The position numbers and the translations under genes are program-made. The notes below the pieces were generated by a model. The model ran no database searches. It was given only the letters and a program-made list of their open reading frames with translations, and was not told where the DNA came from. Positions 2,441 to 51,122 of a stretch of 51,967 nt of DNA are shown one piece after another (position 1 is the first letter of the stretch; each line of letters opens with the position of its first letter). The DNA is taken from positions 1-51,967 of the IMG/VR virus record IMGVR_UViG_3300013117_000053; one strand, written 5' to 3'. Origin of the DNA: a virus. Lineage: Duplodnaviria; Caudoviricetes.

Positions 2441-3943
2441 ATGCCAAGGGTTCTTGAGCTGGATACAGATGTAAAGAGACAAGAACCTGAGAAGGTAACG
2501 CTCCCTGAACGTCAACGCAATAGTCTCCTAAAATTGCTCATTAGTGAGGCACGACAAACTTTTCGAGCTTTTCTCTACTTTTTACATCCTCCCGGCTACA
2601 GTGATTATCTGCTAGGACCGCTACATCTTCACTTAGCTGATATTGTCGATGGCATGCTATGCGGTATGAGGCATGCTTATCAGGCTGTTAGTGTTCCTCC
2701 CCAGCATGGTAAGTCTCAATTGCTGGCCGTACGAGCATCGGCCTTTATCCTAGGACACCAACCGGGAGTGCGAGTTGCCCTCACTGGATTCTCTCATGAT
2801 TTGCTGGTAGAAATGCTGGCAGACATTCGGCGAATTATGGAGACTCCCGAATATCAACTTATCTTTCCCGGTGTAGCTCCTGTCGAGGGATTCAACCGAC
2901 AAGACGAGATGCGGCTTACAAACGGTTCATCCATTATCGCTAAAAGTACAGGACGAAAGCTGACAGGGCGACGAGTTGACTGGCTTGTAATGGATGACGT
3001 ACATGCGGGCCGAGAAGAAGCAGAGAGCAAAACACAACGAGCTAAGATTCAGAGATGGTATTTTGGAGATTGCGTATCTCGTCTGCATCCTACTGCTAAA
3101 GTATTTTTGCTGGGAACGCGTTGGCATCCGGAAGATTTGATTGGGCATCTAACATCCGAAAATTATGTACAGCAATTGCGTACTCATGGACGAGATGACT
3201 TAGTTTATGAAATTACGAATCTACCGGCGATTGCTGAGCAGAACGATATCTTAGGGCGGGAGATAGGAGAGGCGTTATTTCCTGAAGAGAGGCCGATAGA
3301 TTTTCTGGAAGGTGTGCGGCTATCTATACCGCGCTATGAGTGGGATAGTCAGTATCGAGGCAAACCTAGTGCATCCGGGTCCGGACAGGTTAATTTGTTC
3401 AGAGTTAATCGCGGATTGATTATCAATGCCGTGCCTACAAATATTCCTTGGGTGCGGGGCTGGGATCTAGCTCTTACTGAGAAGCAGACTTCTGACTATA
3501 GCTGCGGGGCTTTGTGTGCGTATGATCGGGAGACAAAGGATTTCTTCGTGATAGACATGTTCCGAAGAAAACTAGCATGGGCACGATTGAAACCCCGCCT
3601 TCTTCGGATAAGCCTGCAAGACAAGATCAGATACAACTGTAATAGGATGGGGCTAGAGGCTGTATCGGGATTTAAGATTGGGCTTTCGGAAATACGGGAA
3701 TCTTTACAAGGAGAGGTTAGAGTCGAGGAACGCAATCCTCCACGGGGTGGCAAGCTGATGCGAGCACAGGACTGGCTCAATACGATTGAGGCGGGGAGAT
3801 TTCATCTTGTGCAGGGAGCATGGAACAAAGATTTCCTGGATGAGTTAGAGATGTTTCCAGACGGCGAGCATGATGATCAAATTGATGCTGTGTCGATTGC
3901 GTGGGAATCTCTAGTACGCCGAAAGAAGCTACTATACGCTTGA
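2441..3943 (+). CDS. terL: Terminase large subunit
   Basis: VPPQHGKS Walker A, LTGRRVDWLVMDD Walker B, GTRWHPEDL, RGWDLA nuclease motif, FPDGEHDDQIDA C-terminus. Confidence 0.95.
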   Translation: MPRVLELDTDVKRQEPEKVTLPERQRNSLLKLLISEARQTFRAFLYFLHPPGYSDYLLGPLHLHLADIVDGMLCGMRHAYQAVSVPPQHGKSQLLAVRASAFILGHQPGVRVALTGFSHDLLVEMLADIRRIMETPEYQLIFPGVAPVEGFNRQDEMRLTNGSSIIAKSTGRKLTGRRVDWLVMDDVHAGREEAESKTQRAKIQRWYFGDCVSRLHPTAKVFLLGTRWHPEDLIGHLTSENYVQQLRTHGRDDLVYEITNLPAIAEQNDILGREIGEALFPEERPIDFLEGVRLSIPRYEWDSQYRGKPSASGSGQVNLFRVNRGLIINAVPTNIPWVRGWDLALTEKQTSDYSCGALCAYDRETKDFFVIDMFRRKLAWARLKPRLLRISLQDKIRYNCNRMGLEAVSGFKIGLSEIRESLQGEVRVEERNPPRGGKLMRAQDWLNTIEAGRFHLVQGAWNKDFLDELEMFPDGEHDDQIDAVSIAWESLVRRKKLLYA

Positions 3944-3968
3944 CAAAAGATTGTCAAGGTGATATAGT
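3940..3968 (+). promoter_or_regulatory. Sigma70-type promoter (TTGACAAAAGA class)
   Basis: TTGACA-17 nt-TATAGT; the -35 hexamer is also one arm of the palindrome TTGACA-aaagat-TGTCAA. Confidence 0.85.
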
Positions 3969-3982
3969 AGACTCGTATCATA

Positions 3983-4131
3983 GAAATGGATTCAGAATGA
4001 CACTCATGGGGGAGGTTAAGTAGGCTGATATGATGCTACTACTTCTTGTTCCCATTCCGGTTAATTTCGGGCGTGTGTCCGAGCCGGATATGAGTATGCC
4101 AAGCCTGCAAGTGTCATTCTGAAAACATTTC
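3983..4131 (+). ncRNA. Candidate structured leader or ncRNA
   Basis: Perfect 14-bp inverted repeat 3991-4004/4110-4123 enclosing smaller hairpins; no convincing + strand ORF for ~270 nt after the promoter. Confidence 0.4.
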
Positions 4132-5330: not shown

Positions 5331-5359
5331 TTGACAAAAGATTCTGCTTATGTCATAGT
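5331..5359 (+). promoter_or_regulatory. Sigma70-type promoter (TTGACAAAAGA class)
   Basis: TTGACA-17 nt-CATAGT with extended -10 TG. Confidence 0.75.
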
Positions 5360-6794: not shown

Positions 6795-7169
6795 ATGAAG
6801 TCGCGATCCGCTCATACTGCCGACTGCACGATCTATTCTGCATTGTGTAACGGCAAGTCTGAGGATGGCATTTGTACCTGCGGGTACGGCTGGATGCTGG
6901 CACGGCAGGGCGACTGGTCGGAGATGTATTCGGAGGAGCGAATGATGACTAGCGTTTATGCCTTTCTTCGGCACTGCAATTATTCCAGCCGTTGCCGATA
7001 CAAATACCGGCCGCGACTGCTGTGCCGCCCCGAGTGTCGGCACCATGAGGACTGCGACCACGCAGACCAGCACATGGATACGGAGTATACGCGCCGGGGG
7101 CCGGACCAGGATGGTCGCTGGTATCGTGTGCCGAACGATCAAACTCAGTTTCGGAGCGCAGCGACGTAA
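6795..7169 (+). CDS. Cys/His-rich hypothetical protein ending inside attC-like site 1
   Basis: AAGGAG SD; C-terminus PNDQTQFRSAAT is encoded by the hairpin arm. Confidence 0.55.
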   Translation: MKSRSAHTADCTIYSALCNGKSEDGICTCGYGWMLARQGDWSEMYSEERMMTSVYAFLRHCNYSSRCRYKYRPRLLCRPECRHHEDCDHADQHMDTEYTRRGPDQDGRWYRVPNDQTQFRSAAT

Positions 7170-7190
7170 ATCTAGAGCGCTTTGTTGGGC
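7130..7190 (-). repeat. attC-like site 1
   Basis: GCCGAAC...ctcagtttcg/cgtaaatctagag...GTTGGGC; extra bases on the right arm. Confidence 0.75.
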
Positions 7191-7209
7191 GCTCTGAAAG
7201 GACGGACAG

Positions 7210-7428
7210 ATGAAATGCTATGAGATCACGCCAAGCCCTGATCCTGCATACGACAGCATGATCGTGGAGGCCGATGACACTTGGGGACCAGCCCTTGAGT
7301 TGGTCGAGTCCGCACTAGATGACCAATTCGTGCGTGCTGAGGATGAAGGCAGGCCGTGGACTGACATCACCGTGACGGTGCGGTGTGTGGAGAAAACGCA
7401 AGAGGAAATGGACGCGCTCCATGAGTAG
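7210..7428 (+). CDS. Cassette gene, acidic hypothetical protein
   Basis: AAAGGA SD; bounded by attC-like sites 1 and 2. Confidence 0.7.
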   Translation: MKCYEITPSPDPAYDSMIVEADDTWGPALELVESALDDQFVRAEDEGRPWTDITVTVRCVEKTQEEMDALHE

Positions 7429-7533
7429 CGCCAACGTTGAGCACAGCGGCAAAGAAAGCCGCAGAGAGGACGGTTGATATGAAAAAGAAACGTAAGCGCG
7501 GCTTTCTTTGTACGCTGATGCGTCTGGTTCGGC
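7429..7533 (-). repeat. attC-like site 2
   Basis: CGCCAAC...cagcggcaaagaaagccgc/gcggctttctttgtacgctg...GTTCGGC; loop carries an SD and ATG of a 24-aa ORF (7479-7553). Confidence 0.8.
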
Positions 7534-7563
7534 ATTTTCCGGGCCGGGCGTAGAAAGGAAAGC

Positions 7564-7953
7564 ATGAGAAACAAGCACGAGGAAATGGAAGCCATCGACA
7601 AGGCGCTTGACGAGTTCACCAACGACTGCCGAAGCCCGGACATGGCAAGCCATGATGGCTCACGATGCAGCGAACGCAGAGTTGACTGGCTCGAAACAGC
7701 CGGAGAAAGGCACAGCATGAACCAAGATGGCAAAGCGGCTGTTTCGAGTACGGTCGGACGCCTTGTTCGCCCTTCCTGGGTGAGCATCGAGATGATGGAG
7801 TTTGCCCGTCCGCAAGACGATGACCTATGGCACTGGGCAAACAACCTGAACGCCATGTTGCGCTCTGGCTACTGCAAGAAGTGTGGCCTGACGCCGAATG
7901 GATGCCGCAACGAAGGATGTAGGGCGAACGACAAGCATGAGGGTCAAGCATGA
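7564..7953 (+). CDS. Cassette gene(s): ORF reads through attC-like site 3, with a second start at 7717 inside the hairpin loop
   Basis: SD AAAGGA before 7564; SD-like GGAGAAAGG before ATG 7717; C-terminal CKKC...C...C. Confidence 0.55.
   Translation: MRNKHEEMEAIDKALDEFTNDCRSPDMASHDGSRCSERRVDWLETAGERHSMNQDGKAAVSSTVGRLVRPSWVSIEMMEFARPQDDDLWHWANNLNAMLRSGYCKKCGLTPNGCRNEGCRANDKHEGQA
7669..7771 (-). repeat. attC-like site 3
   Basis: AGCGAAC...ctcgaaacagcc/ggctgtttcgag tacggtc...GTTCGCC. Confidence 0.8.
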
Positions 7954-7998
7954 CAAGCGAAGCGCGGAATGATTGTACCCTCGATGCTCTTGTTGGCC
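7923..7998 (-). repeat. attC-like site 4
   Basis: GGCGAAC...agcatgagggtcaa/ttgTaccctcGatgct...GTTGGCC; extrahelical T and G on the + strand. Confidence 0.85.
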
Positions 7999-8534
7999 TT
8001 CCGGGTCCGTTCTCGGTGATCTACGCTGACCCGCCGTGGTCATACAACGACAAGCGCGGCGGAAAGCCTGCGTGGGGGGCTATGACGTACCCGACCATAC
8101 CGACGCGAGAGATTGCGGCCTTGCCGGTGGCTCAAATCGCAGCGTCCGACTGCGCTCTGTTCATGTGGGCGACCATGCCGCTTCTGCCGGATGCCTTTGC
8201 CGTGCTTGACGGGTGGGGGTTCGACTTTGTGACATGCGCTTTCGTGTGGGTGAAGACAAACAAGAGGGCTGGCACTATCTATTCTGGCATGGGGCACTGG
8301 ACGAACCAAAACGCGGAGCTTTGCCTGTTGGCAAGGCGAGGCAAACCGAAGCGGGTGGCGCGAGACGTGAAGCAGATTGTGCTTGCGCCACGGGGGCGGC
8401 ACAGCGCAAAGCCTGACGAGGTGCGCGACCGGATTGTGCGTCTGATGGGGGACGTTCCAAGGGTTGAACTGTTCGCCCGTGAGCGCGTCCAATGTTGGGA
8501 AGCGTGGGGCAATGAGGTAGAGGCCAACGCCTAG
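7950..8534 (+). CDS. MT-A70 family adenine methyltransferase (cassette-borne)
   Basis: VIYADPPW, LFMWAT, FVWVK, GMGHWT, HSAKP, VELFAR, WGNE motifs. Confidence 0.92.
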   Translation: MTSEARNDCTLDALVGLPGPFSVIYADPPWSYNDKRGGKPAWGAMTYPTIPTREIAALPVAQIAASDCALFMWATMPLLPDAFAVLDGWGFDFVTCAFVWVKTNKRAGTIYSGMGHWTNQNAELCLLARRGKPKRVARDVKQIVLAPRGRHSAKPDEVRDRIVRLMGDVPRVELFARERVQCWEAWGNEVEANA

Positions 8535-8577
8535 GTTCAGCGGTGGCGAAGCTGTACGTTGCAACCTCTGGTTGGCA
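8522..8577 (-). repeat. attC-like site 5
   Basis: GGCCAAC...ggttcagcg/cgttgcaacc...GTTGGCA (56 bp). Confidence 0.8.
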
Positions 8578-8597
8578 GAACAATTAGAAAGGACGAT

Positions 8598-9401
8598 ATG
8601 AAACTAATGCAAGGTGATTGCCTAGAGAGAATGAAAGAGATACCGGATGGAAGTGTGGATATGGTGCTGACCGACCCGCCTTATGGGACGACTGCTTGCA
8701 GGTGGGATAGCATCATTCCGCTTGAGCCTATGTGGGAGCAGTTGAAGAGGGTGACAAAGCCTAACGGGGCTATTGTCATGACGGCAAGCCAGCCGTTCAC
8801 GACCACGCTGATTGCTTCTAATATGAAGATGTTTAAGTATTGTTGGGTTTGGAACAAGAAAAAGGCAGCAAATTTCTTGTTTGGCAATAAAATGCCATTA
8901 AAGATAACAGAGGACGTAGTGGTTTTTTATGGCAAACAACCCACATACAACCCAATAAAACGAGTAAACCCTCTTGGGTCACAAAAACCAGGGCGTAAAG
9001 GCATAGGCAATACCATCAAAGACCACCTTCCGAATTGTCCAGAAAGAAGCAAAGCGGGGAAAAGTTACGAACCAGACAAGTTGTTGCCGGTCTCTATTTT
9101 AGAGATTAGCAAGCCCCATAAGCCAGTCCACCCCACCCAAAAACCAGTAGCCCTAATGGAGTACCTAATCAAGACATACACCAACGAGAATGAAACCGTG
9201 CTGGACTTCACAATGGGCAGTGGCACTACTGGCGTGGCTTGCGCGAACCTCAACCGAGAATTCACCGGAATTGAGAAGGTGGAAGAATACTTCAATATCG
9301 CACAAACGCGGATCGAAGAGGCTATTACTGCCAACACTACTGCTCACGGTCGAGCGGTAGCGAGTACCGTGCAGCAGATTGTTGGAGGTTCCGATGGCTG
9401 A
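8598..9401 (+). CDS. DNA N6-adenine/N4-cytosine methyltransferase, beta class (cassette-borne)
   Basis: GDCLERM, LTDPPYG, HPTQKPVAL, VLDFTMGSGTTG; AAAGGA SD before ATG 8598. Confidence 0.95.
   Translation: MKLMQGDCLERMKEIPDGSVDMVLTDPPYGTTACRWDSIIPLEPMWEQLKRVTKPNGAIVMTASQPFTTTLIASNMKMFKYCWVWNKKKAANFLFGNKMPLKITEDVVVFYGKQPTYNPIKRVNPLGSQKPGRKGIGNTIKDHLPNCPERSKAGKSYEPDKLLPVSILEISKPHKPVHPTQKPVALMEYLIKTYTNENETVLDFTMGSGTTGVACANLNREFTGIEKVEEYFNIAQTRIEEAITANTTAHGRAVASTVQQIVGGSDG
9329..9387 (-). repeat. attC-like site 6
   Basis: TGCCAAC...ctgctcacggt/accgtgcagcag...GTTGGAG; the core site supplies the GGAGG SD of the next gene. Confidence 0.8.
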
Positions 9402-9828
9402 TTTGACAGAAGCAAGATTCGCCGCCAAGTCGGTTGAATACGAGACGCCGCAAGACCTGTTTGACGGGCTGGACGCGGAGTTTGGTTTCACTTGTGACGT
9501 GGCGAGTACGGACGCCAACGCGAAATGTGCGAAGCACTTTACGCTTGCCGACGACGGGCTTGCCCAGCCGTGGGAAGGGGTTTGCTGGTGCAACCCCCCG
9601 TATGGCCGGGAAATGCCGCGATGGATTCGCAAGGCTCGGACAGAGGCGGAAGCAGGGAAAGCAACCACAGTCTTGCTTATTCCGGCCAGGACAAATACCG
9701 GATGGTGGCACGACGAGTGCATGAAGGGTGAGGTGAGGTTCATTCGTGGGCGACCACGGTTCAACGGAGGCAAGCATGGTCTGCCGTTTCCGTTGGCGGT
9801 CGTGGTCTTCCGTACCTCCAACGACTGA
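9394..9828 (+). CDS. Phage-type DNA N6-adenine methyltransferase (Dam family; cassette-borne)
   Basis: YETPQDLF, FTCDVAS, DGLAQPW, WCNPPYG, LIPARTNT, FIRGRPRF. Confidence 0.9.
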   Translation: MADLTEARFAAKSVEYETPQDLFDGLDAEFGFTCDVASTDANAKCAKHFTLADDGLAQPWEGVCWCNPPYGREMPRWIRKARTEAEAGKATTVLLIPARTNTGWWHDECMKGEVRFIRGRPRFNGGKHGLPFPLAVVVFRTSND

Positions 9829-9875
9829 CATCAGCGTTGCGCGAATAGCGCATACGCTGAATGTCTTGGTTGGGT
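9816..9875 (-). repeat. attC-like site 7
   Basis: CTCCAAC...gacatcagcgttgcgc/gcgcatacgctgaatgtc...GTTGGGT. Confidence 0.85.
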
Positions 9876-9904
9876 TTCTCCCGGCCAAGACGGAAAGGAA
9901 CGAG

Positions 9905-10165
9905 ATGGCATACGCTACGATGGATGATTTCAAATACGCAATCGAGACCATGCAACCAAAGCGCGAGGATTGGGACAACACACAAGTATCACGCGGAACG
10001 CCGGAAGATCTTGAGGTTTTCCGAAGAACGCGATGCCTATTTGTCGGTGATCGCATACGCAAAGCAATGAAGTGCGAACACAAATACCGTAGCGCGTTCA
10101 ATCACGAATTGTGCATGACGTGTGGATGCCTTATTGCGGGTGGCCTTAGTAAACCCAACAGGTAA
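9905..10165 (+). CDS. Cassette gene, hypothetical protein with CxH...CxxC
   Basis: AAAGGA SD before ATG 9905; ends KPNR across the final AAC core. Confidence 0.65.
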   Translation: MAYATMDDFKYAIETMQPKREDWDNTQVSRGTPEDLEVFRRTRCLFVGDRIRKAMKCEHKYRSAFNHELCMTCGCLIAGGLSKPNR

Positions 10166-10190
10166 TTCTACAGAAACGATCCATATAACC
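10151..10190 (-). other. Putative attI-like terminal recombination site
   Basis: AAACCCAAC matches the GTTGGGTTT start of the last cassette, but no hairpin follows; the - strand reads GGTTATATGG...ATTACCT-GTTGGGT. Confidence 0.45.
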
Positions 10191-10220
10191 CAAGAGGGCC
10201 GATTCGCGGGTAGTAGGGTA

Positions 10221-11009
10221 ATGGTACGTAAGGTGTATGATCCTGAGATAATGAAAAACGTACTCAGAATCAGTACGCTTAGCGATGAACACATACGATG
10301 GAATACCTACAAGGTACTTAGGCAGAGTACCCCGGCTGAAGTCGAAGGCGGTAAAGTATCGTACTTCGATTATCATAAAATCATGCACGAAATCGGAAAG
10401 CGGTATGGTGTATCGCATCGTCATGTGGCCGGGGTATTCTGTGCTCTTAGTCCGAATGCCGATTGGCTCTCTAATCTTCGTAGTGCCTTAACTGTAGTAC
10501 ATGGTTTTGTAAATAGCTGGGCCGAGCACGAGGTCACAGTCAGCACGTACAAGCATAATCGAGCAAAGGCATGGGAGTTGATGGCGGGAGCCCCCTTCGA
10601 TGAGGTGTATAAGGGACTAAAAGTCCGTGCCTTCTATCGAAATATCTGTGACCCGAATGATCGAGAGCATGTTTGTGTTGACGGGCATATGGCAAACGTG
10701 GCGCGGGGCTACCCTGTGGGTACGCGGTATGCTGAGACCGGGGGTATAAAAGGCTATAGGCGAATCGTTGCGGCGGTTAAAGAGGTTGCCGAGCAAGAAG
10801 GGCTGATACCATCTCAGTTACAGGGGATTTTGTGGGTGACATGGAAACGTATTCACGGCATAATGATTAGTGACCACGCTAGTTTGTTTGATGCGTTGGT
10901 AGAGTGGAAACGTCCGTATATTGATACAAGTAACTGGAGACCGTACCCTAGACGTGTGCAGAAAAATGAGAAGGAGTCGGGATACGTGCAAGAGTGTTTG
11001 TGCTTCTGA
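10221..11009 (+). CDS. Phage protein resembling HhH-GPD-fold DNA glycosylase-like family
   Basis: ALSP..W..N, KVRAFY.NI, VCVDGH, QLQGILWVTWKR motifs; start codon uncertain. Confidence 0.6.
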   Translation: MVRKVYDPEIMKNVLRISTLSDEHIRWNTYKVLRQSTPAEVEGGKVSYFDYHKIMHEIGKRYGVSHRHVAGVFCALSPNADWLSNLRSALTVVHGFVNSWAEHEVTVSTYKHNRAKAWELMAGAPFDEVYKGLKVRAFYRNICDPNDREHVCVDGHMANVARGYPVGTRYAETGGIKGYRRIVAAVKEVAEQEGLIPSQLQGILWVTWKRIHGIMISDHASLFDALVEWKRPYIDTSNWRPYPRRVQKNEKESGYVQECLCF

Positions 11010-12270: not shown

Positions 12271-14748
12271 ATGGCGCGGATCTTAGAAGGTCTTAAGTTT
12301 GCGAGGCGTGTCCCTCAGAATCGAACAGATTTGGTTATGGAGTCCCGTACTCCTGATGCTAAGGAGCGTACGTTCATTGAGCGTACGCTTCGTGTTCCGA
12401 TATACGAGTTCAGTGACATGCGGGCCTATCTTCGGGTAGGTTGTGAGAAGGTATGGGCGTCGTTCAGGGCGTGTCACTTGACAGCATCGGTTCTGCTTTC
12501 CACTAAGTTTAAGGTGCAGGGCAAAGAGCTTGGAGCTGATGTACAGAATCCTGAATTGAATCGTTTGCTTAGTACGCCTAACCCATTCGATTCATGGGCA
12601 GAGTTGCTGTATCTGTGGGTTTACCATATGAAGCTGACAGGGCGGGCGTACTGGCTTAAAGATGAAATGGATTACAAAGGTAGACCGAAATACCTTTATC
12701 CATTGATGCCTCAGTATGTAGCGCCCATACCTCACCCTACCGAAAAAATTAGTGGGTACATATATCGGGTTAATGGGCAGGAGCAACACTTTGAACGGGA
12801 TGAGATAATTCATTTTCGTCGTCCTCATCCTATGAAACTGCACGGGGCATTAGGCGATGTAGCAGCGTCTCAACCACTTTATCGAGAGTACATAGCACGA
12901 AACACACTTGAGGAGAAGTTTCTTGCTAATGGGGCAATGCCGTCTGGCATTCTTACTAAGAAAGAGGCTGAAGAGGATGAAGAGGAGTGGGCTAAGCTGA
13001 AGAAGTGGTGGAAGTCTGAGTACGAGGGGGAGCGTAACGTAGGTAAGACGGCTTTTCTGAATGGCGAATGGGCATACACGAAGCTGGGACTGACACATTC
13101 TGAGATGCAATCCATTGAGAACGAGAAATGGAGCATCGAGCAGATATTTACCAATCATGGTGTGCCGCTTTCGATGGCGGGGATCAAAGAAGCTGCAAAC
13201 TACGCTTGCCTTCCTGCTGGGGAGCTAGTCACAACGCAAAATGGGGTGCCTGTTCCTATCGAGCAATTAGAGGCTGGAGATGTTATTGTCCAGTTTGATC
13301 CTGCGATGGGTAGTGTTGAGGTTCCTGTTGAAGCGATTATCGAACAGGGTGACGCTGAGGTTTTGGAGCTTGTCACGGATTCACGTACTCTTCGAGCATC
13401 AAATAACCATCCAGTTTTATGTGTGAATCGTACAGCGGGAACAGGGCGTAACGGGAAACGAGTTGAGGTAGCTCTGGAATACAAATACGTTGAGGATCTT
13501 TGTGTAGGCGATATAGTGGTATGCTTAGACGAGCTTATGTGTAAAAGGAATAAGTGTATTCCTATTGAGAACCGTGATCCTATTGATGCTGCATACGCAC
13601 TTGGACAGTATGTAGGAGACGGCAGCGGTGCTTCCCTTACACGTATACGAATTGGGGGGTTTACTATTGCTACACATGAAAAAGAGGGTTACCAGTCAGT
13701 AGTAGCTGATGCGTTTAAGGCATTTGGGTTTGTGCCGTCAGTTAATCCTACTAGCATTAGGTTTCAGTCTGCGGATTTTGCGCGTGATATGGTTAGTGCA
13801 GGTTTTGGCGGTAGGTCAGGTGAGAAGCGTATTCCTGAATGGGTCTTTTCACTTCCAGTTGAACAACAACTACATTTTGCTGCGGGATTGATTGACGCGG
13901 ATGGTTGTGTTGCAGAGCGTGGTAGTATTACGTTTGCTGTAGCAAATAAAGAGTTGGCTAGTGACTTTAAGCATTTGCTTATGTGTCTCGGAGTTCCAAC
14001 CAGTAACTTGCGTCCATGTGAGCAGTTCACGAACTATGGGGATGTTGTAAGTTGGCGTTTTACTGCTGGAATTGTGAGAGAAAACAAGCGGCTACCTTTG
14101 CGACACCCCAAAAAAGCACAACGGCTTGCAGTAGCGGAAAGTAAAGGTGATAAGGCAGGTAAGGGGATTCCGGGTGCGTATCGTTTACCTTCTGATCTTG
14201 TGTTGCCCGAGGGTTATGGCGTACAGAAGGTTAGAAGTATACGTTCTCTTGGTAAGATGCCAGTCTATGATTTAGCAACTACTGGGTACCACAATTTTCT
14301 TGCTTCTGGCATTGTCACACATAATACGGCGCGGCAAGACGAGATTAACTTTCGTAAGTACGAAATTGTTCCCCTTCTGGATTTGTTGGTAGGCAAGCTG
14401 AATGGCGAAGAGACAGCGGTGGGTAAGCCTGTATTTGTGCGGGCTTTTTCTTCTATATGGGAATTGGCATACGAGTTATCAGGCTTGATTGATGTTGAGC
14501 AGGTAGTGAAGGATTACGGTCCTCTTGTGGATAGGGGTGCGCTAACGCCGAATCAGTTACGGGAATTATGCGGGTTGGAGCGTGACGAGGGTAATCCGTT
14601 GCTTGATCAGTATTTTGTGAATAGAAACCGTGTACCTATTGAGTTTGCGGGATTCTCAACTCCGACAGATGCGGAGCGTGAAAGAGATCGTAGAGAGAAT
14701 GAATCTATTCTTCCCGAAGGGGAGGAAGATGATGAAGTAGAGGAATGA
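12271..14748 (+). CDS. HK97-family portal protein with intein
   Basis: LLSTPNPF, GRAYW, LYPLMP, DEIIHFR, FLANGAMPSGIL, GVPLSMAG, LTPNQLRE. Confidence 0.93.
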   Translation: MARILEGLKFARRVPQNRTDLVMESRTPDAKERTFIERTLRVPIYEFSDMRAYLRVGCEKVWASFRACHLTASVLLSTKFKVQGKELGADVQNPELNRLLSTPNPFDSWAELLYLWVYHMKLTGRAYWLKDEMDYKGRPKYLYPLMPQYVAPIPHPTEKISGYIYRVNGQEQHFERDEIIHFRRPHPMKLHGALGDVAASQPLYREYIARNTLEEKFLANGAMPSGILTKKEAEEDEEEWAKLKKWWKSEYEGERNVGKTAFLNGEWAYTKLGLTHSEMQSIENEKWSIEQIFTNHGVPLSMAGIKEAANYACLPAGELVTTQNGVPVPIEQLEAGDVIVQFDPAMGSVEVPVEAIIEQGDAEVLELVTDSRTLRASNNHPVLCVNRTAGTGRNGKRVEVALEYKYVEDLCVGDIVVCLDELMCKRNKCIPIENRDPIDAAYALGQYVGDGSGASLTRIRIGGFTIATHEKEGYQSVVADAFKAFGFVPSVNPTSIRFQSADFARDMVSAGFGGRSGEKRIPEWVFSLPVEQQLHFAAGLIDADGCVAERGSITFAVANKELASDFKHLLMCLGVPTSNLRPCEQFTNYGDVVSWRFTAGIVRENKRLPLRHPKKAQRLAVAESKGDKAGKGIPGAYRLPSDLVLPEGYGVQKVRSIRSLGKMPVYDLATTGYHNFLASGIVTHNTARQDEINFRKYEIVPLLDLLVGKLNGEETAVGKPVFVRAFSSIWELAYELSGLIDVEQVVKDYGPLVDRGALTPNQLRELCGLERDEGNPLLDQYFVNRNRVPIEFAGFSTPTDAERERDRRENESILPEGEEDDEVEE
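13207..14325 (+). mobile_element. Intein (373 aa) with in-frame LAGLIDADG homing endonuclease
   Basis: NYA|CLPAGELV, ASNNHP block B, LGQYVGDG and FAAGLIDADG, VYDL...HNFLASGIVTHN|T. Confidence 0.95.
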
Positions 14749-31647: not shown

Positions 31648-32727
31648 GTGGGCGAGTTTCACCTAAGTGTAGAGTTCACTGAAATTTGTGGTGTAGATGT
31701 GCGGGGGACACGAGAGGAGCATGTCATATGTTGCTGTTCGTCTTCTGTTTCATCGTCCTCAGTGTCTTCCTCTGTAAGTAGCCGTAGTGCTTTGTCTGAG
31801 TCGGAAGTGTCTCAATCGGTAGCCGAATCGGGGGGTAGCGAGAGTGGGAGTGTCAGCAGTCGAAGTAGTAGGAGTAGTGTTAGTAGCGAATCCTCTAGTG
31901 TATCTAGTAGTATTTCGTCTAGTAGCGAGGAGAGGATTTACCCTAACAAGTATTACTGTGTTCAAGAAGATCAATGGGACTTGACCGTCGGGGGGTGTCC
32001 TCCGGGTGTGCCAGATAATACTGTGTATAAGGTATTGCAGGGCAAAGATATCGTAGACATTTGCACGCAAGGTCCATTATTTTACTATGAGCATACAGTA
32101 CTGTCAGGGCCGTTCGATACTGCCGAAGAGGCACAACCTTGCCCCCCTTCTTTTCAGGCTGAAGAGGTTATGCTTCTTCATCCTCCTGAGTTTCCGGGGA
32201 TACCACACGATGAGTATGTGCGGCTTGCTACACTAGATGGTAAGAATGTTACCTTGCAGGGTGCTGGGAAGGCGTATGCTGGAGAGGGTTATCGAGTAGC
32301 GTGGAATGCAGATCGGTATCATTGGGAGTTATGGGATAGTGTAGGTTTTGTAGGTGAGTCTATTACGCATACTGCAAGCGATGCGGGTGGGTTGTATCGA
32401 ACAACACGGGGTGCTCGTACGCGGGGGTATAGGCAGTTTCATACGCTAAGACACGAGAAGGGATGGGAGGGGGATTTTCAGCTTGCACCGAAAGGTAGCA
32501 GACGATACCTTGGCAATCGTCAGCTAAAGAACAGGATGCGTCTTGAGTTTGCTGATCTTCGAGAGATGGACAAGTTTCTCCGTAACCTGTCGGGGTTAAT
32601 GTCTGTTGGGAAGAAGCCAGCACGGCTAAGAGTTAAACGCCGCAATCGCTCAGTACGCTATGATCGGGGGGAGAGCATCCTTGATGAGCCTAACGCCGGT
32701 ATTCATTCAGAATCCGAAAACAGCTAG
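31648..32727 (+). CDS. Cys/Ser-rich putative tail fibre or adhesin protein
   Basis: ICCC followed by a ~60-residue Ser-rich tract; same frame as the upstream gene. Confidence 0.6.
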   Translation: MGEFHLSVEFTEICGVDVRGTREEHVICCCSSSVSSSSVSSSVSSRSALSESEVSQSVAESGGSESGSVSSRSSRSSVSSESSSVSSSISSSSEERIYPNKYYCVQEDQWDLTVGGCPPGVPDNTVYKVLQGKDIVDICTQGPLFYYEHTVLSGPFDTAEEAQPCPPSFQAEEVMLLHPPEFPGIPHDEYVRLATLDGKNVTLQGAGKAYAGEGYRVAWNADRYHWELWDSVGFVGESITHTASDAGGLYRTTRGARTRGYRQFHTLRHEKGWEGDFQLAPKGSRRYLGNRQLKNRMRLEFADLREMDKFLRNLSGLMSVGKKPARLRVKRRNRSVRYDRGESILDEPNAGIHSESENS

Positions 32728-33289
32728 TACTTCTATACGCAAAGCACTACCCGGAGTAAAGACGGCATCTTTGCGGAGACACCGTACGGTACACCTACCC
32801 CTCAAACATTGGCACATTCAACGCCAAATCGAGCATGCTGAACGTCCGTGGGTATTTGGGGTAGTACGTCATCCTTTCGATAGGTTCATTTCAGCATGGG
32901 CTTATTTCAAGAAGCCACGTAAACGTACGCTAACGGATTTCTATGTACTGGAGGCTTGTTTACAGGATGGAACTATAAATGACTTTATACGCACTGTAAG
33001 TTTTGAAAAGATTTCAAAGTGGGTGCCCCACTTTAGACGACAGCAGTGGTTTTTCACGAATAGGCAGGGCAAGAGAGATGCTGTTGATCAGCTACTACGT
33101 TTTGAGAATATCGAGCATGAGTTTTCAACGTTGTGCTCGAAGCTGAGTATCCCTCCTTTTGAGTTGCCAAAGATGCGGACGACTAAGCATCCAAGGTGGC
33201 AGGATGTGTTAGGGCAGTCATCTATTAGGAAGTTATTGCGTTTCTACAAACCGGATTTTGAGAGGTACGGGTATGAGTGGGAAGCTTGA
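32684..33289 (+). CDS. Sulfotransferase (Sulfotransfer_2-like)
   Basis: FIQNPKTASTSI (5'-PSB), VVRHPFDRFISAW (3'-PB), HFRRQ, LRFENI, YKPDFERYGY; start uncertain (32660 or 32684). Confidence 0.88.
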   Translation: MSLTPVFIQNPKTASTSIRKALPGVKTASLRRHRTVHLPLKHWHIQRQIEHAERPWVFGVVRHPFDRFISAWAYFKKPRKRTLTDFYVLEACLQDGTINDFIRTVSFEKISKWVPHFRRQQWFFTNRQGKRDAVDQLLRFENIEHEFSTLCSKLSIPPFELPKMRTTKHPRWQDVLGQSSIRKLLRFYKPDFERYGYEWEA

Positions 33290-34025
33290 TCCAATACTAG
33301 TATGGCCTATCAAACCAAAAGGGGGTAGTCGCTGGGATAATAATGAATTGCGCTTCTCTTTGCGATCAGTGCAGAAGCATTGGCATACGTATAACGATAA
33401 GCCGCCGAAAGTGTTTATCCTCACTACAGTAAATGTTCCGTGGTTGAACGAAGAAGAGGTAACGCTTGTACCTGTCCGGGGATACGCAGAGGCAATTATT
33501 ACTACGTGGGAGCTAGCGCGAGAGCATACGCAATCCCACTATTATGTGTGGATGAATGATGATATTTGTTTTCTGCGAGACACTGTAGCTGAGGATCTGA
33601 TGACTGCATTGCATTTGGGCAAAATGCCTCGTCCGAAGGAGGGCGAAAAGCGAGTAAAAAATGGTTGGCGTAGGAAGCTGCATGGGGTTCGCAATAGGCT
33701 ATGGGGGATGGGGATTGAGCCACTAGACTTTTCCACGCATGATCCGTACTTGTTCAATGCAGACAGGATGGAGATAGTTGCTGGATTATTCGGTCTCCAG
33801 TACAAGACTCCGCTAGAGACTGCATACTATAATTTCTGGCGAGAGCAGATACCCCATCGGCGGGCTAAGGGTGATAGAATTGTACGTCATCGAAAAGGGC
33901 GGGGTATCCCCCTTACGTTGAATGGTGAGAGATTTTTGAATTACTCCGAGCAGGGGTGTGATGCCACAATGAAGGGTTATCTGTCTGGGATGTTTCCGTA
34001 CAAATCTCGCTACGAGAAAGGTTAG
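33273..34025 (+). CDS. Stealth-family hexose-1-phosphate transferase-like protein
   Basis: NNELRFSLRSVQKH, VPWL, WMNDDICFL, THDP motifs. Confidence 0.75.
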   Translation: MSGKLDPILVWPIKPKGGSRWDNNELRFSLRSVQKHWHTYNDKPPKVFILTTVNVPWLNEEEVTLVPVRGYAEAIITTWELAREHTQSHYYVWMNDDICFLRDTVAEDLMTALHLGKMPRPKEGEKRVKNGWRRKLHGVRNRLWGMGIEPLDFSTHDPYLFNADRMEIVAGLFGLQYKTPLETAYYNFWREQIPHRRAKGDRIVRHRKGRGIPLTLNGERFLNYSEQGCDATMKGYLSGMFPYKSRYEKG

Positions 34026-34030
34026 GGATA

Positions 34031-34480
34031 ATGACTGATACTAATTATCAGGAGCAGATGGAAAAGGACCGTCAGGAGGCCGCTGCGTGGTCTCAGGGGC
34101 ATTGGAAAGAGCTACAGCAATTGTGGGTAGATCTGCATATTTATGCTGCGCGGTTTTCGCTTTCTCCAAGTACAGAGGATGTAGATGATGCAGAGTCTTG
34201 GCTACAACAATGGTATGTCAAGTTCCCCCCGGATTGTCCGTGCATAGCGGAGTGGACCCGGATCTTAGAGGTGTGTCCGCCCCCTATAGCTAGCGGGGCA
34301 TTAGAGTTTTTTTGGTGGACTGTAGCAGCACATGATAGGGTAAACGTCTATCTGGGTAAGCGGGTATGGGCAAACAAGAGCAAAACACACCCTTTGTTAC
34401 AGCAGTTATTGGAAACCGATGAAGGGAGTCGTGCAGAGTATAAAAGGAGAATGTCTGCTCCTGCTATCAATAAGTGTTGA
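34031..34480 (+). CDS. Erv1/Alr-like FAD sulfhydryl oxidase (CxC variant)
   Basis: LWVDLH...DCPC...WWTVAAHDRVNVYLGK matches the Erv pattern W..LH/PCxxC/W...HN.VN..LGK. Confidence 0.75.
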   Translation: MTDTNYQEQMEKDRQEAAAWSQGHWKELQQLWVDLHIYAARFSLSPSTEDVDDAESWLQQWYVKFPPDCPCIAEWTRILEVCPPPIASGALEFFWWTVAAHDRVNVYLGKRVWANKSKTHPLLQQLLETDEGSRAEYKRRMSAPAINKC

Positions 34481-34487
34481 GGTGTAG

Positions 34488-35357
34488 GTGAAAGCTGTAC
34501 TGTATTTAATGCCTAGACAGGCAAAACCAGCATGGAATACTCATGTGTCTAGGGCGTGGCCTGCGTTCAAGAGAGGTATGCAACGGCACGGAGTTCAGGT
34601 GTATACTTACGTAGAGGACAGTAACCGTGCTACCCCTCCTTATGGTGATGTTGTAGTTACGATGGGGTGGAGAAAGACAAGGAATCCAGTGGTATGTGGT
34701 GCTAGAAATCTTGTACTGGACTCTGGGTATGTAGGTGCGCGGAAGGGAGCGTGTGTGTCTTTTGGGTGGGATGGGTTGAGTGGTATGGCACAGGGGATAC
34801 CGCCAATACCAGGTAGGGGTAAATTATTGCTAGGGAGAGATATGGTTCCATGGCGCGGTCGGGAGGTGCGTAATGTCCTACTAGCGGGGCAGGTGCCGGG
34901 AGATTCTGCGTTGGATGGAGTAGGGCGGTATGCTACGTGGCTTAGAGTGGTAGGGGGGGAGTTAAGAGTTGCGGGGTATCATGTATTATATCGGCCACAC
35001 CCACTTGCTCATGGTAAAATTAGACGGTCTAGAGGTAAGCGCAGAGATAGTGTGCGTAGGTTACTTGGGTTATCTGTGTCAGGTAAGCCTTTGGTGGATG
35101 ATTTGAACTGGGCAGATATGGTGGTATCGTGGAGTAGTAATACGCTTGTGGATGCAGCCATACACGGTATTCCTGTTTGTCCCTTTTCGCGTATAGCTAT
35201 GGTATGGGGGATACGTACTCCGTGGGGTATGTTTGCTACCCCTAATTTATGCGATAGGGATGGGTGGCTGGATTACGTGTGTTCTAGGCAATGGAACATA
35301 CCAGAGTTATTGTCGGGGGAGGCGTGGGATTACATACGGCAAGGAGTATACATGTGA
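34488..35357 (+). CDS. GT-B glycosyltransferase resembling capsule synthesis (KpsS/KpsC-like) family
   Basis: LAGQVPGDSA, YRPHP, WSSNTLVDAAIHGIPV, QWNIPEL.SG. Confidence 0.75.
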   Translation: MKAVLYLMPRQAKPAWNTHVSRAWPAFKRGMQRHGVQVYTYVEDSNRATPPYGDVVVTMGWRKTRNPVVCGARNLVLDSGYVGARKGACVSFGWDGLSGMAQGIPPIPGRGKLLLGRDMVPWRGREVRNVLLAGQVPGDSALDGVGRYATWLRVVGGELRVAGYHVLYRPHPLAHGKIRRSRGKRRDSVRRLLGLSVSGKPLVDDLNWADMVVSWSSNTLVDAAIHGIPVCPFSRIAMVWGIRTPWGMFATPNLCDRDGWLDYVCSRQWNIPELLSGEAWDYIRQGVYM

Positions 35358-36061
35358 GTAAGAGGGTAATATATACCTCAGCAGTGTCTAGGCACATGCC
35401 GTGGTGGGGTCGTTGGGTAAAAAAACGATTTGAGCGATACGCTACTAGGGTAGGCGCTACTTTGGTTAATTTACCATCATGTCGGCATCGTGGTAGATTA
35501 GGGAAGTACTGGGTTAAGTTCGATGCTTTTAAGAGATCGCTGGTAGTAGCAGAGCAGTATCCTGATGCACAGTTTTTATGGTTAGATGCTGATGTGATTT
35601 TGCGACCTATGAAAGTTCCAAATTTATTTGAGTTGGGGGAGGGATTATGGTCGTGTGTTTCGGATAATGGTATGAGTTATCGTCCACGGTCTTATAGGCA
35701 GAATCATTATATGTTTGGTGTTCCATTGATGGCTCCCCATCCGACTAATGCTATTATTCTGTGGGGCAAGAAAGAGGCAAGAGCTATACTACGAGAATAC
35801 GCGAACATACCCTCAGTGTTGCGAATAGAGCAGCGACTGACAGACGAGGGAGGGTTGTGCGTGTTAGCGTATAAAGCTGAGATACCTATACAGTGGGTGC
35901 CTGCGGGCTGGCATAGGATGACTAGTAAGTTTCATAGGAGTACTCAGTTTTTCCACGCGGCGGGTGGTGGCAAGATGAAGAAATGCCGTAGGGCATTGCG
36001 TATTATTCGACGGGTGAGACAGAATGAGAGGCGACGAGCGAAAATAAGAGGTAAGAGGTAA
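35354..36061 (+). CDS. GT-A glycosyltransferase (GT34/GT8-like)
   Basis: YATRVGA, WVK, LWLDADVIL DxD motif, TDEG, FFHAAG; GTG start near 35354 inferred. Confidence 0.75.
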   Translation: MSKRVIYTSAVSRHMPWWGRWVKKRFERYATRVGATLVNLPSCRHRGRLGKYWVKFDAFKRSLVVAEQYPDAQFLWLDADVILRPMKVPNLFELGEGLWSCVSDNGMSYRPRSYRQNHYMFGVPLMAPHPTNAIILWGKKEARAILREYANIPSVLRIEQRLTDEGGLCVLAYKAEIPIQWVPAGWHRMTSKFHRSTQFFHAAGGGKMKKCRRALRIIRRVRQNERRRAKIRGKR

Positions 36062-36063
36062 TT

Positions 36064-36717
36064 ATGTCTGCGCGTGTGTTGTATACTTCTGCGGGACCAG
36101 AGCTACGGTACTGGAAGATTAGTAAACCATACATTGAGCATTACGCTAATAAGGTAGGGGCAAAACTAGTAGTTATCCCAAAGACACGTAGAGTACAGCG
36201 TATGCGGGTATTGTTTGATGCTATGGAGAAATCATTGTTGTGTGAGAGCGATACTGTGTGCGCATGGGTAGATGCGGATATTATTGTACGTAGAACAGCC
36301 CCTGACATATTCGGCACACCCGACAAGTTGCTATTTTGTTCCCCAGAACCGGCTAAGCGAGTACACCCTAGATGGATTAGGGAGTATAAATCTTTTGGCG
36401 TACTCCATCCCCGTCCTTATGTTATTACAGCGATTGTACGTTGGTCTACAAGATATGCGAGACGCATCGTGTCATGGTTAGAGGTTAATGAGGGTAGCCT
36501 GCCTGACAGTATGGATGATCAATCCATATGTACGCTTGCTTGTTGGCAAATGGATATTGCGGTTGCTTATTTTCCATCTACATGGCATAAGATGCATTGG
36601 CGAGTAAAGCGAGGAACGCAATTTTTGCATGCCGCGTCAAGGAACAAAGTCAAAAACTTATGTAAGCTAGCGAAATTGGCAGACCGTAGAGATAAGATGG
36701 TATTGGGGAAGTTGTGA
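36064..36717 (+). CDS. GT-A glycosyltransferase, paralog of the upstream gene
   Basis: YANKVGA, WVDADIIV, DDQS, FLHAAS. Confidence 0.75.
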   Translation: MSARVLYTSAGPELRYWKISKPYIEHYANKVGAKLVVIPKTRRVQRMRVLFDAMEKSLLCESDTVCAWVDADIIVRRTAPDIFGTPDKLLFCSPEPAKRVHPRWIREYKSFGVLHPRPYVITAIVRWSTRYARRIVSWLEVNEGSLPDSMDDQSICTLACWQMDIAVAYFPSTWHKMHWRVKRGTQFLHAASRNKVKNLCKLAKLADRRDKMVLGKL

Positions 36718-37409
36718 GAAAAAGAAAAAAACACAAGGTAATAGCATCGCCTCCTGCTGTGGATTACCATAGGATACGGGGAATGGGTGAGCCTTGTGAC
36801 AGGGATACGTATGCTATGGGAAATCTGGCATACCTAATAGGTAAGCACAACATAGATACAGTGGTAGAGACAGGGGTGCGGAGTGGGAGTACTACGTTAT
36901 TTTTTGCTAATTTGGTAAGTAGGGTATATGGGGTAGACCTGTGTATATCAGATGTAGCAAAGGATAGGGTGTTGTCGTGTATGCGTAGACGGTGGTTAGC
37001 TTCTCATAGTGTTACGTGGTACGAGGGAGACAGTCAGAAGTTAATGCCTGTTATCGTTAGTAGTGTACGTACAGAGCCAGTGCTGTTTTACTTGGATGCA
37101 CACGACTCGCCTAGTAACCCAAAAGGCATGACCCCTGTACCGTTACTTGGAGAATTGCAGGCTATAGCAAGTATGAGTACTCCTCCTGTAGTGGTAGTAC
37201 ATGACTGTGCAGTACCAGAGGAGCCTGAGCATATCTGTATGCCTAATGCTCATAATGGGGGAACTATATGCTATGATTTTATGAAAGAAATACTAGCGGA
37301 GTTTCACTGGAATTGGCGTATTGAGTATAACTCTTTTAGTAGAGGTAAGGGTGCGGCACCGTGGTATGATACCCCAAGTATGGGAGTTGCTTACATTCTT
37401 CCGTGTTGA
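36714..37409 (+). CDS. Class I SAM-dependent methyltransferase (small-molecule or glycan type)
   Basis: VVETGVRSGST, EGDS, LFYLDAH, EL..I, VVVHD. Confidence 0.8.
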   Translation: MRKRKKHKVIASPPAVDYHRIRGMGEPCDRDTYAMGNLAYLIGKHNIDTVVETGVRSGSTTLFFANLVSRVYGVDLCISDVAKDRVLSCMRRRWLASHSVTWYEGDSQKLMPVIVSSVRTEPVLFYLDAHDSPSNPKGMTPVPLLGELQAIASMSTPPVVVVHDCAVPEEPEHICMPNAHNGGTICYDFMKEILAEFHWNWRIEYNSFSRGKGAAPWYDTPSMGVAYILPC

Positions 37410-45235: not shown

Positions 45236-45524
45236 AAGGAACGCAGAAAGTGAGGTTTTCGGAATGACAAGCAAAACGCGAAAGGGAGATAACCCCCACT
45301 GCCTTGTTGGGCAGTGCGAGGATTGCGAAGGGACGGGCTGGTACGGATGCAACGGCCCCGGCATCCCCGGCAACACGGAGTTCGTGAAGTGTAACTGCGG
45401 GACTGCGACGAAATGTACGGCGGGCTATCACAAGTACCGAGTGATTGACGGTGTGCCGTGGTGCGACGAATGTGGACGGGAGGCTGACTTGAGTGTATGC
45501 AAGCTCACTCACCCCCTGCCCAAT
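45236..45524. mobile_element. Orphan attC-type cassette
   Basis: AAC(45240)...GTTGGGCAG(45306-45314) site resembling site 4; gene ends at CTGCCCAAT (45516-45524), an 8/9 reverse complement. Confidence 0.6.
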
Positions 45525-45654: not shown

Positions 45655-45837
45655 ATGACATTTGTTGAGGAGTTACCTAGTTTACTAATTCGGCTCACAG
45701 AAGAGGAAGCGCGCTCTTTGTTAATTCGGCGGGGTGTGTTTGTTGCTGAGGGGAAAGCTAAGGCTGAGGTACTGAGCGGTAAGCATACGTTCAACTACGG
45801 TGAGTATTTGTGGGTAAAGGATACGGTGGAGAAGTGA
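45655..45837 (+). CDS. Small hypothetical protein
   Basis: GGGGAG SD; GTGA overlap with polA. Confidence 0.5.
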   Translation: MTFVEELPSLLIRLTEEEARSLLIRRGVFVAEGKAKAEVLSGKHTFNYGEYLWVKDTVEK

Positions 45838-49547: not shown

Positions 49548-49549
49548 AA

Positions 49550-50518
49550 GTGACACCCTATTATCAGGATCAGTTGATTACGCTGTACCATGCGGGGTGT
49601 GAGGAAGTAATGGGGGGTATTCGTGGCGTAACAGCGGTTGTATCTGATCCCCCCTATGGTATTAGACTATTTCAACATAAGTGGGATTACAGTATACCTA
49701 GTGTTGCTATTCTGAGAATGATTAGAGTAGCGTGCTGCACTGGAAGTACATGGTTAGTGTTTGGGGGTACGAGAACAGTGCATCGACTTATGGTAAATAT
49801 CGAAGATGTAGGAATGCATCTAAAAGATATGATTATATGGGTGCATTCGCAGGGTTTTCCAAAGGGGCATGATATAGGGCAGGCGATTAATAAGAAGCGG
49901 GGAAAAGGTAAGGGGGATAAGTGGTTAGGTTATCGGAGTTGTCTAAAACCGGCGTGGGAGCCTATTGTAGTAGCTGAGTTTTCGTTTGAGGGTGCGTATT
50001 ACCAGCAGGCATTACGAGATGGGGTATCTGGACTCAATATAGATGCTTGTCGTATTGCTAGTGGAGGAGAGAGCAGAGTACAGGCGTACAGTGGGGGAGG
50101 GTTTCATAATACATATGGGGGTGAGTATGTATATACGGATAAGGGGCGGTATCCTGCTAATGTTATATTAGAGGACAGCCAAGAGGTACTTGCGGGTATG
50201 CCGAGAAATGTGCGTCGGTTATTCTTCTGCCCAAAAGCTAGTAAGCAAGAGAAAAGGTTAGAGGGTGGGGAAAGAAATAGACATCCTACGGTAAAGCCTT
50301 TGAAGCTGATGGAGTACTTAATTCGTATGGTGACTATGCCGGATAAGAATAAAATACTTGATCCTTATGCGGGGAGTGGTACGACGGGGGTAGCGTGTAA
50401 GCGACTAGGTATCAGGGCGGTTTTAGTTGAGCAAGAGGAGGAATGGTGTGAGGTTGCGGCACGTAGATTGCAGGGGTGTCAGCAGTTACCAAAAAGGCGC
50501 AGTTCTATTAGCCGGTGA
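49550..50518 (+). CDS. DNA N6/N4 methyltransferase, beta class
   Basis: VSDPPYG, GFPKG, LKPAWEPI, GRYPANV, HPTVKP, ILDPYAGSGTTG; GTG start inferred. Confidence 0.92.
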   Translation: MTPYYQDQLITLYHAGCEEVMGGIRGVTAVVSDPPYGIRLFQHKWDYSIPSVAILRMIRVACCTGSTWLVFGGTRTVHRLMVNIEDVGMHLKDMIIWVHSQGFPKGHDIGQAINKKRGKGKGDKWLGYRSCLKPAWEPIVVAEFSFEGAYYQQALRDGVSGLNIDACRIASGGESRVQAYSGGGFHNTYGGEYVYTDKGRYPANVILEDSQEVLAGMPRNVRRLFFCPKASKQEKRLEGGERNRHPTVKPLKLMEYLIRMVTMPDKNKILDPYAGSGTTGVACKRLGIRAVLVEQEEEWCEVAARRLQGCQQLPKRRSSISR

Positions 50519-51052: not shown

Positions 51053-51122
51053 ATCCTCAATTCTCGCAATGGCTTCGAGCAGTGGCTTACCCTTGCCACC
51101 AAAAACGGATGGATCAAGACGG

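Follow-up and report, generated by a model that had tools for sequence, protein, structure and literature searches.

The closest described relatives of the locus reported here are phage-borne clusters of attC sites lacking integron integrases (CALINs): TJE1, PH101, P12002L and ctTUS972 have several attC sites on one strand, no integrase and methyltransferase cargo (Qi et al. 2023, PMC9892861). An array that resembles them in these respects lies in the caudoviricete record IMGVR_UViG_3300013117_000053. The stretch that we analysed, hereafter the window, is this entire viral record of 51,967 bases, which is linear and has an estimated completeness of 60%. Unlike the array of TJE1, which has normal polarity, the window array has all seven genes on the bottom strand of its attC-type sites, with gene starts in the hairpin. 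With a probability of roughly 0.78, we interpret it from sequence comparison as an array of seven integron-type cassettes that lacks an integrase: the attC hairpin stands before its gene, the bottom-strand geometry lies on the coding strand and a host IntI would be likely to cut at the left AA|C. The available text of PMC9892861 mentions only 'divergent' attC sites and several open reading frames (ORFs) between sites. Among the published records themselves, ctTUS972 (L587, MW202573, 2068-3739) gave three weak covariance-model matches on the − strand with genes on the + strand, and P12002L gave one weaker match (E 0.08) in the same reversed relation; reversed sites may already be present in both. 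No account of an entire array whose ORFs run antisense to attC came up in the literature searched, which left most subscription papers outside. In Vibrio arrays, individual cassettes such as toxin–antitoxin pairs are known to lie in reverse orientation and to have their own promoters.

Canonical cassettes and attC sites (aadA7 and the Vibrio cholerae repeat, VCR; Bouvier 2009, PMC2727003; Nivina 2016, PMC5027507) share with the window AAC/GTT cores, an unpaired spacer, two extrahelical bases 6 nt apart, a variable loop and complementary ends. The window differs from them in that the gene is antisense, the hairpin forms the 5' leader and the first of the extrahelical bases is frequently A or C, either of which VCR tolerates within 1.2-2.7-fold (PMC2727003). 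Window cores are CCAAC/CGAAC rather than the canonical TAAC, and most window genes therefore have no stop before the junction. A canonical cassette has its ORF on the top strand followed by its attC, whereas here the ORFs are on the bottom-geometry strand with attC in front. Blocks have nevertheless moved with junctions at the core triplet, as cassettes do, and our own covariance model places at least two attC sites on one strand, less than 4 kb apart and with no integrase nearby, which is the definition of a CALIN used by IntegronFinder. Neither intI nor a cassette promoter (Pc), the marks of a complete integron, was found on this contig; specifically, the 60%-complete contig has no PF00589 match that would indicate a tyrosine recombinase or intI. 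In the inverted-integrase ('reverse') integrons of Treponema (PMC4889954), one part of the platform is likewise flipped. There, intI is turned relative to attC, whereas the window has turned ORFs and, carrying no intI on the contig, falls outside that class.

We scanned both strands of the whole window for attC geometry (terms for AAC, spacer, stem, two extra bases and GTT; score of at least 11) and found six sites on the + strand and none on the − strand, with AAC at 7433, 7673, 7927, 8526, 9333 and 9820. A seventh, decayed site begins at 7134, and the seven attC-type hairpins span 7134-9871. AAC and GTT cores surround the hairpin with a 5-6-nt unpaired spacer at 7/7 sites, site 1 being the decayed one. 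In sites 2-7, the left AAC is followed by a spacer of 5-6 nt, and the + strand has on its 3' arm a T, 6 nt, a single extra base (in order A, G, G, C, C and A), 3 nt, a 5-nt spacer and GTT; G (or a tolerated substitute) and T are thus extrahelical on this arm, 6 nt apart, in 6/7 sites. The bottom strand of aadA7 has the same layout (Table S3 of PMC9892861), and both extrahelical bases, G and T, have been assigned to the bottom strand together with the cleavage between C and A (PMC2727003). An earlier note on this DNA, made from its letters alone, had reported unpaired bases on the right arm of the + strand, T and G at site 4 and T and A at site 7, and they lie exactly there. As a control, the published phage arrays TJE1 (3/3 sites) and M16-3 (4/4) carry the geometry, in the same scan, on the strand opposite to their genes.

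A covariance model gave the same strand. It was built from 32 coding-strand sites of normal-polarity arrays (bacterial, TJE1 and M16-3) chosen by our own scan, and is therefore not fully independent; it matched 7/7 window sites on the − strand (E 7e-11 to 0.005) and none on the + strand at those places, the outcome that the inverted orientation proposed in the earlier note implies. Among the matches listed, which include 81 viral sites, 12/12 inner stem pairs were altered on both sides, in an alignment fitted to the model. Sites 7 and 4 folded far more stably than their shuffled versions (z −6.2 and −4.2; 0/200 shuffles). Each right core is complementary to the left core of the following unit; the match extends over 8-9 nt in each of units 3-7 and over 5 nt in each of the first two. 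This shows a unit (cassette) structure, which is compatible with either polarity. A ribosome-binding site (RBS) and ATG lie inside the hairpin or at most 50 nt behind it in 7/7 cases, at 6/8 left cores the reading frame continues through the core with an Asn codon in frame, and three of the seven units carry a DNA methyltransferase (MT-A70, N6/N4 and Dam). The sites and units are as follows, where X1-X3 are marine metagenome runs and handles beginning with L are comparison records.

7134-7186, + strand: site 1, a decayed attC-type hairpin with bottom-strand geometry (model E 0.003 on the − strand; intact versions in X1 and L358)
7136-7434, + strand: unit 1, hairpin 1 and a 72-amino-acid gene at 7210-7428 (99% copy in X1)
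7433-7529, + strand: site 2, a long hairpin with an RBS and ATG in its loop (7479, 24-amino-acid ORF; geometry scan and model)
7435-7674, + strand: unit 2, whose gene from 7564 continues in frame into the unit 3 gene; core match of only 5 nt
7673-7767, + strand: site 3, a hairpin containing the RBS and ATG (7717) of the unit 3 gene (geometry scan and model)
7675-7928, + strand: unit 3, a 78-amino-acid gene at 7717-7953, with a 9-nt core match (91% match in L387 from the left AAC)
7927-7994, + strand: site 4, with extra T and G, containing the ATG (7950) of the MT-A70 gene (geometry scan, model and folding z)
7929-8527, + strand: unit 4, an MT-A70 methyltransferase gene at 7950-8534 with its stop codon inside site 5 (Pfam PF05063; matches in X1 and X2)
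8526-8573, + strand: site 5, a short, weakly folding hairpin (geometry scan and model)
8528-9334, + strand: unit 5, an N6/N4 DNA methyltransferase gene at 8598-9401 that runs through site 6; GC 0.47 (Pfam PF01555)
9333-9383, + strand: site 6, its right core overlapping the Shine-Dalgarno sequence of the next gene (geometry scan and model)
9335-9821, + strand: unit 6, a phage Dam-type methyltransferase gene at 9394-9828 (Pfam PF05869; match in X1)
9820-9871, + strand: site 7, with extra T and A (model E 7e-11 on the − strand; folding z)
9822-10158, + strand: unit 7, an 86-amino-acid gene at 9905-10165 with its stop codon past the terminal core (match in X3)

Natural junctions indicate that a hairpin usually travels with the gene downstream of it. 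The contigs of the metagenome runs cover single units and almost no backbone. In X1, a copy of the unit 1 gene differs at 2 of 249 nt; an intact form of the site 1 arm stands in front of it, and two different hairpin arms come after it. The X1 copy of unit 4 begins within hairpin 4, agrees at 560/561 nt and ends at 8529, a position behind which X2 has a different arm. Hairpin 4 also occurs in these runs with a different left neighbour, the change falling exactly at 7927. The match to unit 6 in X1 begins at 9331 and that to unit 7 in X3 at 9818, both being left cores with other letters before them, and the match to unit 3 in L387 likewise starts at the left AAC. L371 and L388, which share 3 kb of backbone at 96%, hold the same blocks in different order, starting and ending at the left AAC. 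In L015, one hairpin-plus-gene unit is present twice with differing neighbours, and L039 has a related hairpin in front of a Dam homologue. Among the matches listed (129 distinct viral sites), hairpins were identical in 5/8 pairs that share only the downstream flank and in 0/6 that share only the upstream flank, even at 100% flank identity; an upstream gene that keeps its hairpin while the downstream gene changes was not seen among the compared sequences. These junctions bear out the earlier note's claim that the attC-like sites are inverted and that each hairpin belongs to the downstream gene. The window junction 7093-7243 recurs in X3 with no mismatch; this sequence may come from the phage itself and does not count as independent support.

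Three further records touch on how hairpins and genes are joined. In X1, a 151-nt record joins the left arm of hairpin 4 (window 7924-7953; only 30 nt match) to an opposite-facing RBS and ATG, which may be either a junction of mixed polarity or the product of a rare event on the top strand. A gene common to L371 and L388 (94%) stands behind hairpins whose outer parts are identical and whose inner stem has been replaced with compensatory changes. In L019 (4001-4420), an 81%-identical phage Dam gene has no hairpin and is a possible free form of the unit 6 cargo. Across 80 MT-A70 loci we found only two hairpins, both in L144 and away from the match, and 20/22 Dam loci had none, indicating that both gene families are mostly not cassette-borne.

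The same reversed relation recurs in other viruses. The first pattern scan yielded one real array among 16 loci. Among the matches listed, an RBS and ATG were present only on the bottom-geometry strand at 89/118 viral sites, only on the other strand at 0 and on both at 8. Pfam named 11 of the 139 ORFs in eight arrays, and these were reversed in viral arrays (6/6) and in normal polarity in bacterial ones (5/5); longest-ORF coverage was uninformative as an indicator of the coding strand (14 same, 18 opposite). The in-frame Asn rule, first met in the window and then counted in the wider viral set, held at 92/113 viral sites, where the frame that reads AAC as Asn is open upstream, compared with 32 and 27 for the other frames; at bacterial sites (n=38) the three frames were open at 11, 11 and 10, and the rule was absent (both counts among the matches listed). 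We had expected the following hairpin to provide an in-frame stop as a rule; this was not borne out, with 9/101 viral sites in that frame among the matches listed.

The bacterial arrays come mostly from records of Kiritimatiellae, Lentisphaerae and Verrucomicrobia and carry related hairpins in normal polarity. In the chromosomal integrons of these groups (L449, L460, L463, L527 and L529), hairpin family and core usage are the same as in the window, and a model built from them finds the window sites; unlike the phage array, they have genes in normal polarity, encode IntI and carry peptidases and HNH proteins rather than methyltransferases as Pfam-named cargo. L527 is a complete normal integron with the hairpin type of the window, and an IntI above the TIGR02249 cut-off was present in 5/5 tested bacterial genomes with this hairpin family. 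IntI was found in 0/10 viral array records, three of which are at least 90% complete. The acting enzyme is probably a host IntI working in trans, and the host probably of the Kiritimatiellae, Lentisphaerae or Verrucomicrobia type.

Some observations weigh against reading the array as reversed integron cassettes. Integrase is absent from view, on a contig that is only 60% complete. The comparison loci came from pattern scans of viral and genome collections for the hairpin type, with patterns taken from the window hairpins, and do not amount to a phage census. The earlier note held that G.T wobbles favour folding of the + strand; this claim is weak. The + strand is more stable in 5/7 sites (mean −1.9 kcal/mol), but random windows of the G-rich strand give −0.96 (P about 0.05), and energy barely distinguishes the strands once G skew is accounted for; only three G.T pairs occur in the L stems, in sites 3 and 5. 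At site 5, the best + fold is not the recombinogenic hairpin, and the cores pair better on the − strand. Nor does a hairpin always keep to a single gene: in X3, a different gene follows 63 nt that are identical to hairpin 4, the site 1 hairpin precedes a different gene in L358, and 3/8 of the pairs sharing a downstream flank have differing hairpins among the matches listed. On genome contigs, the RBS and ATG test is weak and divided (74 sites among the matches listed, with L462, which lies inside L463, counted once: 15 top only, 10 bottom only, 3 both, 46 neither); some of the small genome contigs have a reversed appearance and could be of phage origin. The cases in X3 and L358 are reuse of cassette ends, as is that of L352 (4400-5107), where a diverged MT-A70 body stands between hairpin 4 and the final 27 nt of unit 4. 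The last 21 nt of unit 5 (9315-9335) also terminate unrelated sequence in L352 and X1.

We weighed three other accounts of the array. Were it in normal polarity on the + strand, each hairpin would belong to the upstream gene and crossover would fall at the right-hand G|TT. Core complementarity suits either polarity, hairpin 4 is followed by different genes from 7996-7998 in X1 and X3, and top-strand recombination does occur, 1,000-10,000-fold more rarely (PMC5027507). This account is largely refuted and highly improbable, because the extra bases are on the wrong arm, the covariance model matches only the − strand, the array ends in a lone left core and, among the matches listed, no pair (0/6) kept upstream flank and hairpin together. 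Starts and RBSs in or just behind the hairpins mean that these must affect translation, and one might take them for RNA structures at gene starts (terminators, or translation or stability elements) instead of DNA recombination sites; given that they lack a U tail, a + strand terminator call and any Rfam match, that unit-specific complementary cores lie 240-800 nt apart and that shuffling is precise at AAC, we hold this to be the least probable of all. A different phage-encoded recombinase, or homologous recombination at unit ends, is unlikely without being so remote: the attC likeness would then be inherited and IntI would no longer act. The lack of IntI in 11 viral records, the roughly 40% of the genome that is unseen and the diverged body of L352 between a shared hairpin 4 and the last 27 nt, which suggests homologous exchange, all speak for it. 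The junctions, however, are at AAC, where IntI cuts (PMC2727003), the extrahelical pattern and stem covariation have been kept, the contig has no tyrosine recombinase and the same hairpin family stands beside intI in L527 and L529, all of which speak against it.

Where new cassettes would enter such an array is suggested by its 3' end, and how far it once extended by its 5' end.

10151-10171, + strand: lone terminal core that forms no hairpin, followed by a 5-nt spacer and a box rich in A/T; a candidate entry site of attI-like or attG type, with the crossover predicted at 10158|10159
6949-6974, + strand: possible remnant of an eighth site, with a right arm only, a mutated core and then 8 nt complementing the left core of site 1 (a right-arm profile places it 57th among about 104,000 positions; the covariance model gave no match)

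As the earlier note had stated, the last core, at 10151-10159, has no hairpin (z −0.39; no covariance-model match at 10151-10200); it complements the right core of site 7 over 9 nt. Lone 3' cores of other viral arrays share its motif of AAC, five bases and an A/T-rich box. In a profile of such cores (38 in all, from which 21 were removed by a hairpin-arm signature, including the terminal-looking L368 and L223, leaving 16 non-window sites), the window site falls in the top 1.3% of background AAC sites. Decay rises with distance from 10158: units 3-7 are intact, unit 2 is mismatched and fused, site 1 has insertions and the possible half-site lies beyond, a gradient that fits entry at 10158. We lean towards regarding 10158 as an attI-like entry site, with entry mostly at 10158|10159 and older units hence nearer the promoter.

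The attI-like entry site that the earlier note had placed at 10158 is thereby moderately supported, by the motif and the graded decay; the motif is weak and no close relative was found. The position might instead be an attG-type secondary site that received the first cassette, with later growth by attC x attC recombination anywhere and no dedicated entry site, an alternative that we think possible but less probable. Cassettes at attG sites likewise lie outside an integron at a short core (10.1101/2022.09.11.507474); those are ordinary cassettes in either orientation, whereas the window has a whole array in one reversed design with a recurring end motif. Integrases insert at very many GWT sites (same source), the terminal motif of the window scores modestly, ranking only 11th of the 581 AAC sites on the + strand, and the order of blocks is shuffled at both ends in L371 and L388, which differ at the 5' end as well. 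The array was not found in terminase relatives at 55% identity. A solitary, decayed reversed unit directly behind dnaB (45240-45524; left AAC at 45240, right core at 45306, ATG in the loop, complementary far end with AAC changed to AAT, model match on the − strand at E 0.67) suggests entry without any array end. Speaking for a dedicated site are the occurrence of the motif at lone 3' cores of unrelated viral arrays, 9/16 of which fall in the top 0.7% of background by leave-one-out, the graded decay and an in-register agreement over 6 nt with the core that occupies the attI position next to intI in L527, which is a single post-hoc comparison. In L529, around 1010-1060, 10-nt motifs recur behind the attI-position core adjacent to a bacterial intI and are possibly accessory integrase-binding sites.

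At the other end, a small Cys/His-rich gene at 6795 has homologues, one of which (P0014) has an N-terminal stretch resembling a translated hairpin arm. The array may once have reached further 5' (6795-6974), given this N terminus and the half-site at 6949. The sole match to an ORF at 6942 (L589) proved spurious.

Bottom-strand selectivity has been seen as keeping cassette genes in line with Pc (PMC5027507, PMC2727003). No − strand promoter-like site was found near 10160-10300, where a Pc would be antisense to the genes. Of the proposal in the earlier note that the array is a canonical integron read on the − strand with every ORF antisense to it, the antisense ORFs are upheld by the model and the junctions, and the integron itself is not, there being no intI on the 60%-complete contig and no − strand promoter near 10160. 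Two promoter-like sites lie upstream on the coding strand.

3940-3968, + strand: sigma-70-type promoter-like site, a possible operon driver (11/12 consensus matches only)
5331-5359, + strand: second promoter-like site (10/12 consensus matches only)

Such promoter matches are no more numerous than in shuffles. No + strand terminator-like site was found between the 5331 site and 11100, and transcription of the cargo from upstream phage promoters appears reasonably likely. An inverted repeat with 22-nt arms 105 nt apart (3983-4131) lies directly behind the 3940 site. We propose that a host IntI would fold the coding strand and cut it at AA|C; that units would be excised by attC x attC recombination, shuffled and added; and that new units would enter mainly at the hairpin-less core, at 10158|10159, which is the operon 3' end, where they would be read from upstream. 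The + strand is G-rich over the whole window; if it is the leading strand, the bottom strand would be the lagging-strand template, which favours folding (PMC5371416). The cargo methyltransferases are likely to protect against host restriction.

A whole array of the opposite design would use the same chemistry with another logic, appending genes at the end of an operon and expressing them from upstream promoters. Integrons have come to be recognized as reservoirs of genes directed against phages, and a phage-side pool of methyltransferases would be a counter-move that uses the same enzyme. We tentatively suggest, at somewhat less than even odds, that phages infecting bacteria of the Planctomycetes–Verrucomicrobia–Chlamydiae (PVC) group maintain a cassette pool of mirror-image design, with an attI-like docking site of their own at the operon 3' end, served by host IntI in trans. 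Reversed units would plug into running transcription and translation and be silent in a host integron, and new cassettes would arise by swapping gene bodies between retained ends. The first making of cassettes has been described as largely unknown (PMC5371416). The hairpin-free Dam relative in L019 (81%) and the recurring ends around different bodies provide material on this question, and gene-body swapping between retained ends, if true, would be a testable route to cassette genesis. Software that attributes an attC to the gene upstream of it would cut such cassettes in the wrong places.

The array occupies a variable stretch between the terminase and portal genes. In terminase relatives at 55% identity, the two genes abut or enclose other DNA, without hairpins. 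A DUF7178 search of viral contigs found no close relatives of the phage, and metagenome loci of DUF7178 relatives (n=80, best 49% identity) had no hairpin at a score of 12.5. On the + strand lie the genes to which Pfam or PHROGs gave a name (terminase, portal, major head protein, tape measure, DnaB and DNA polymerase A). Three more DNA methyltransferase genes lie outside the array (1269-2273, 49379-50518 and 51069-51965), giving six on the contig. The portal gene (12271-14748) contains an intein with a LAGLIDADG domain, and the match to DNA polymerase A (45810-49547) is in two parts with a second ORF (48289-48879) inside, which suggests an insertion. Between the tail genes and an AAA ATPase, 32660-37409 holds six genes mostly of unknown family, the first of them sulfotransferase-like (phrog_3347).

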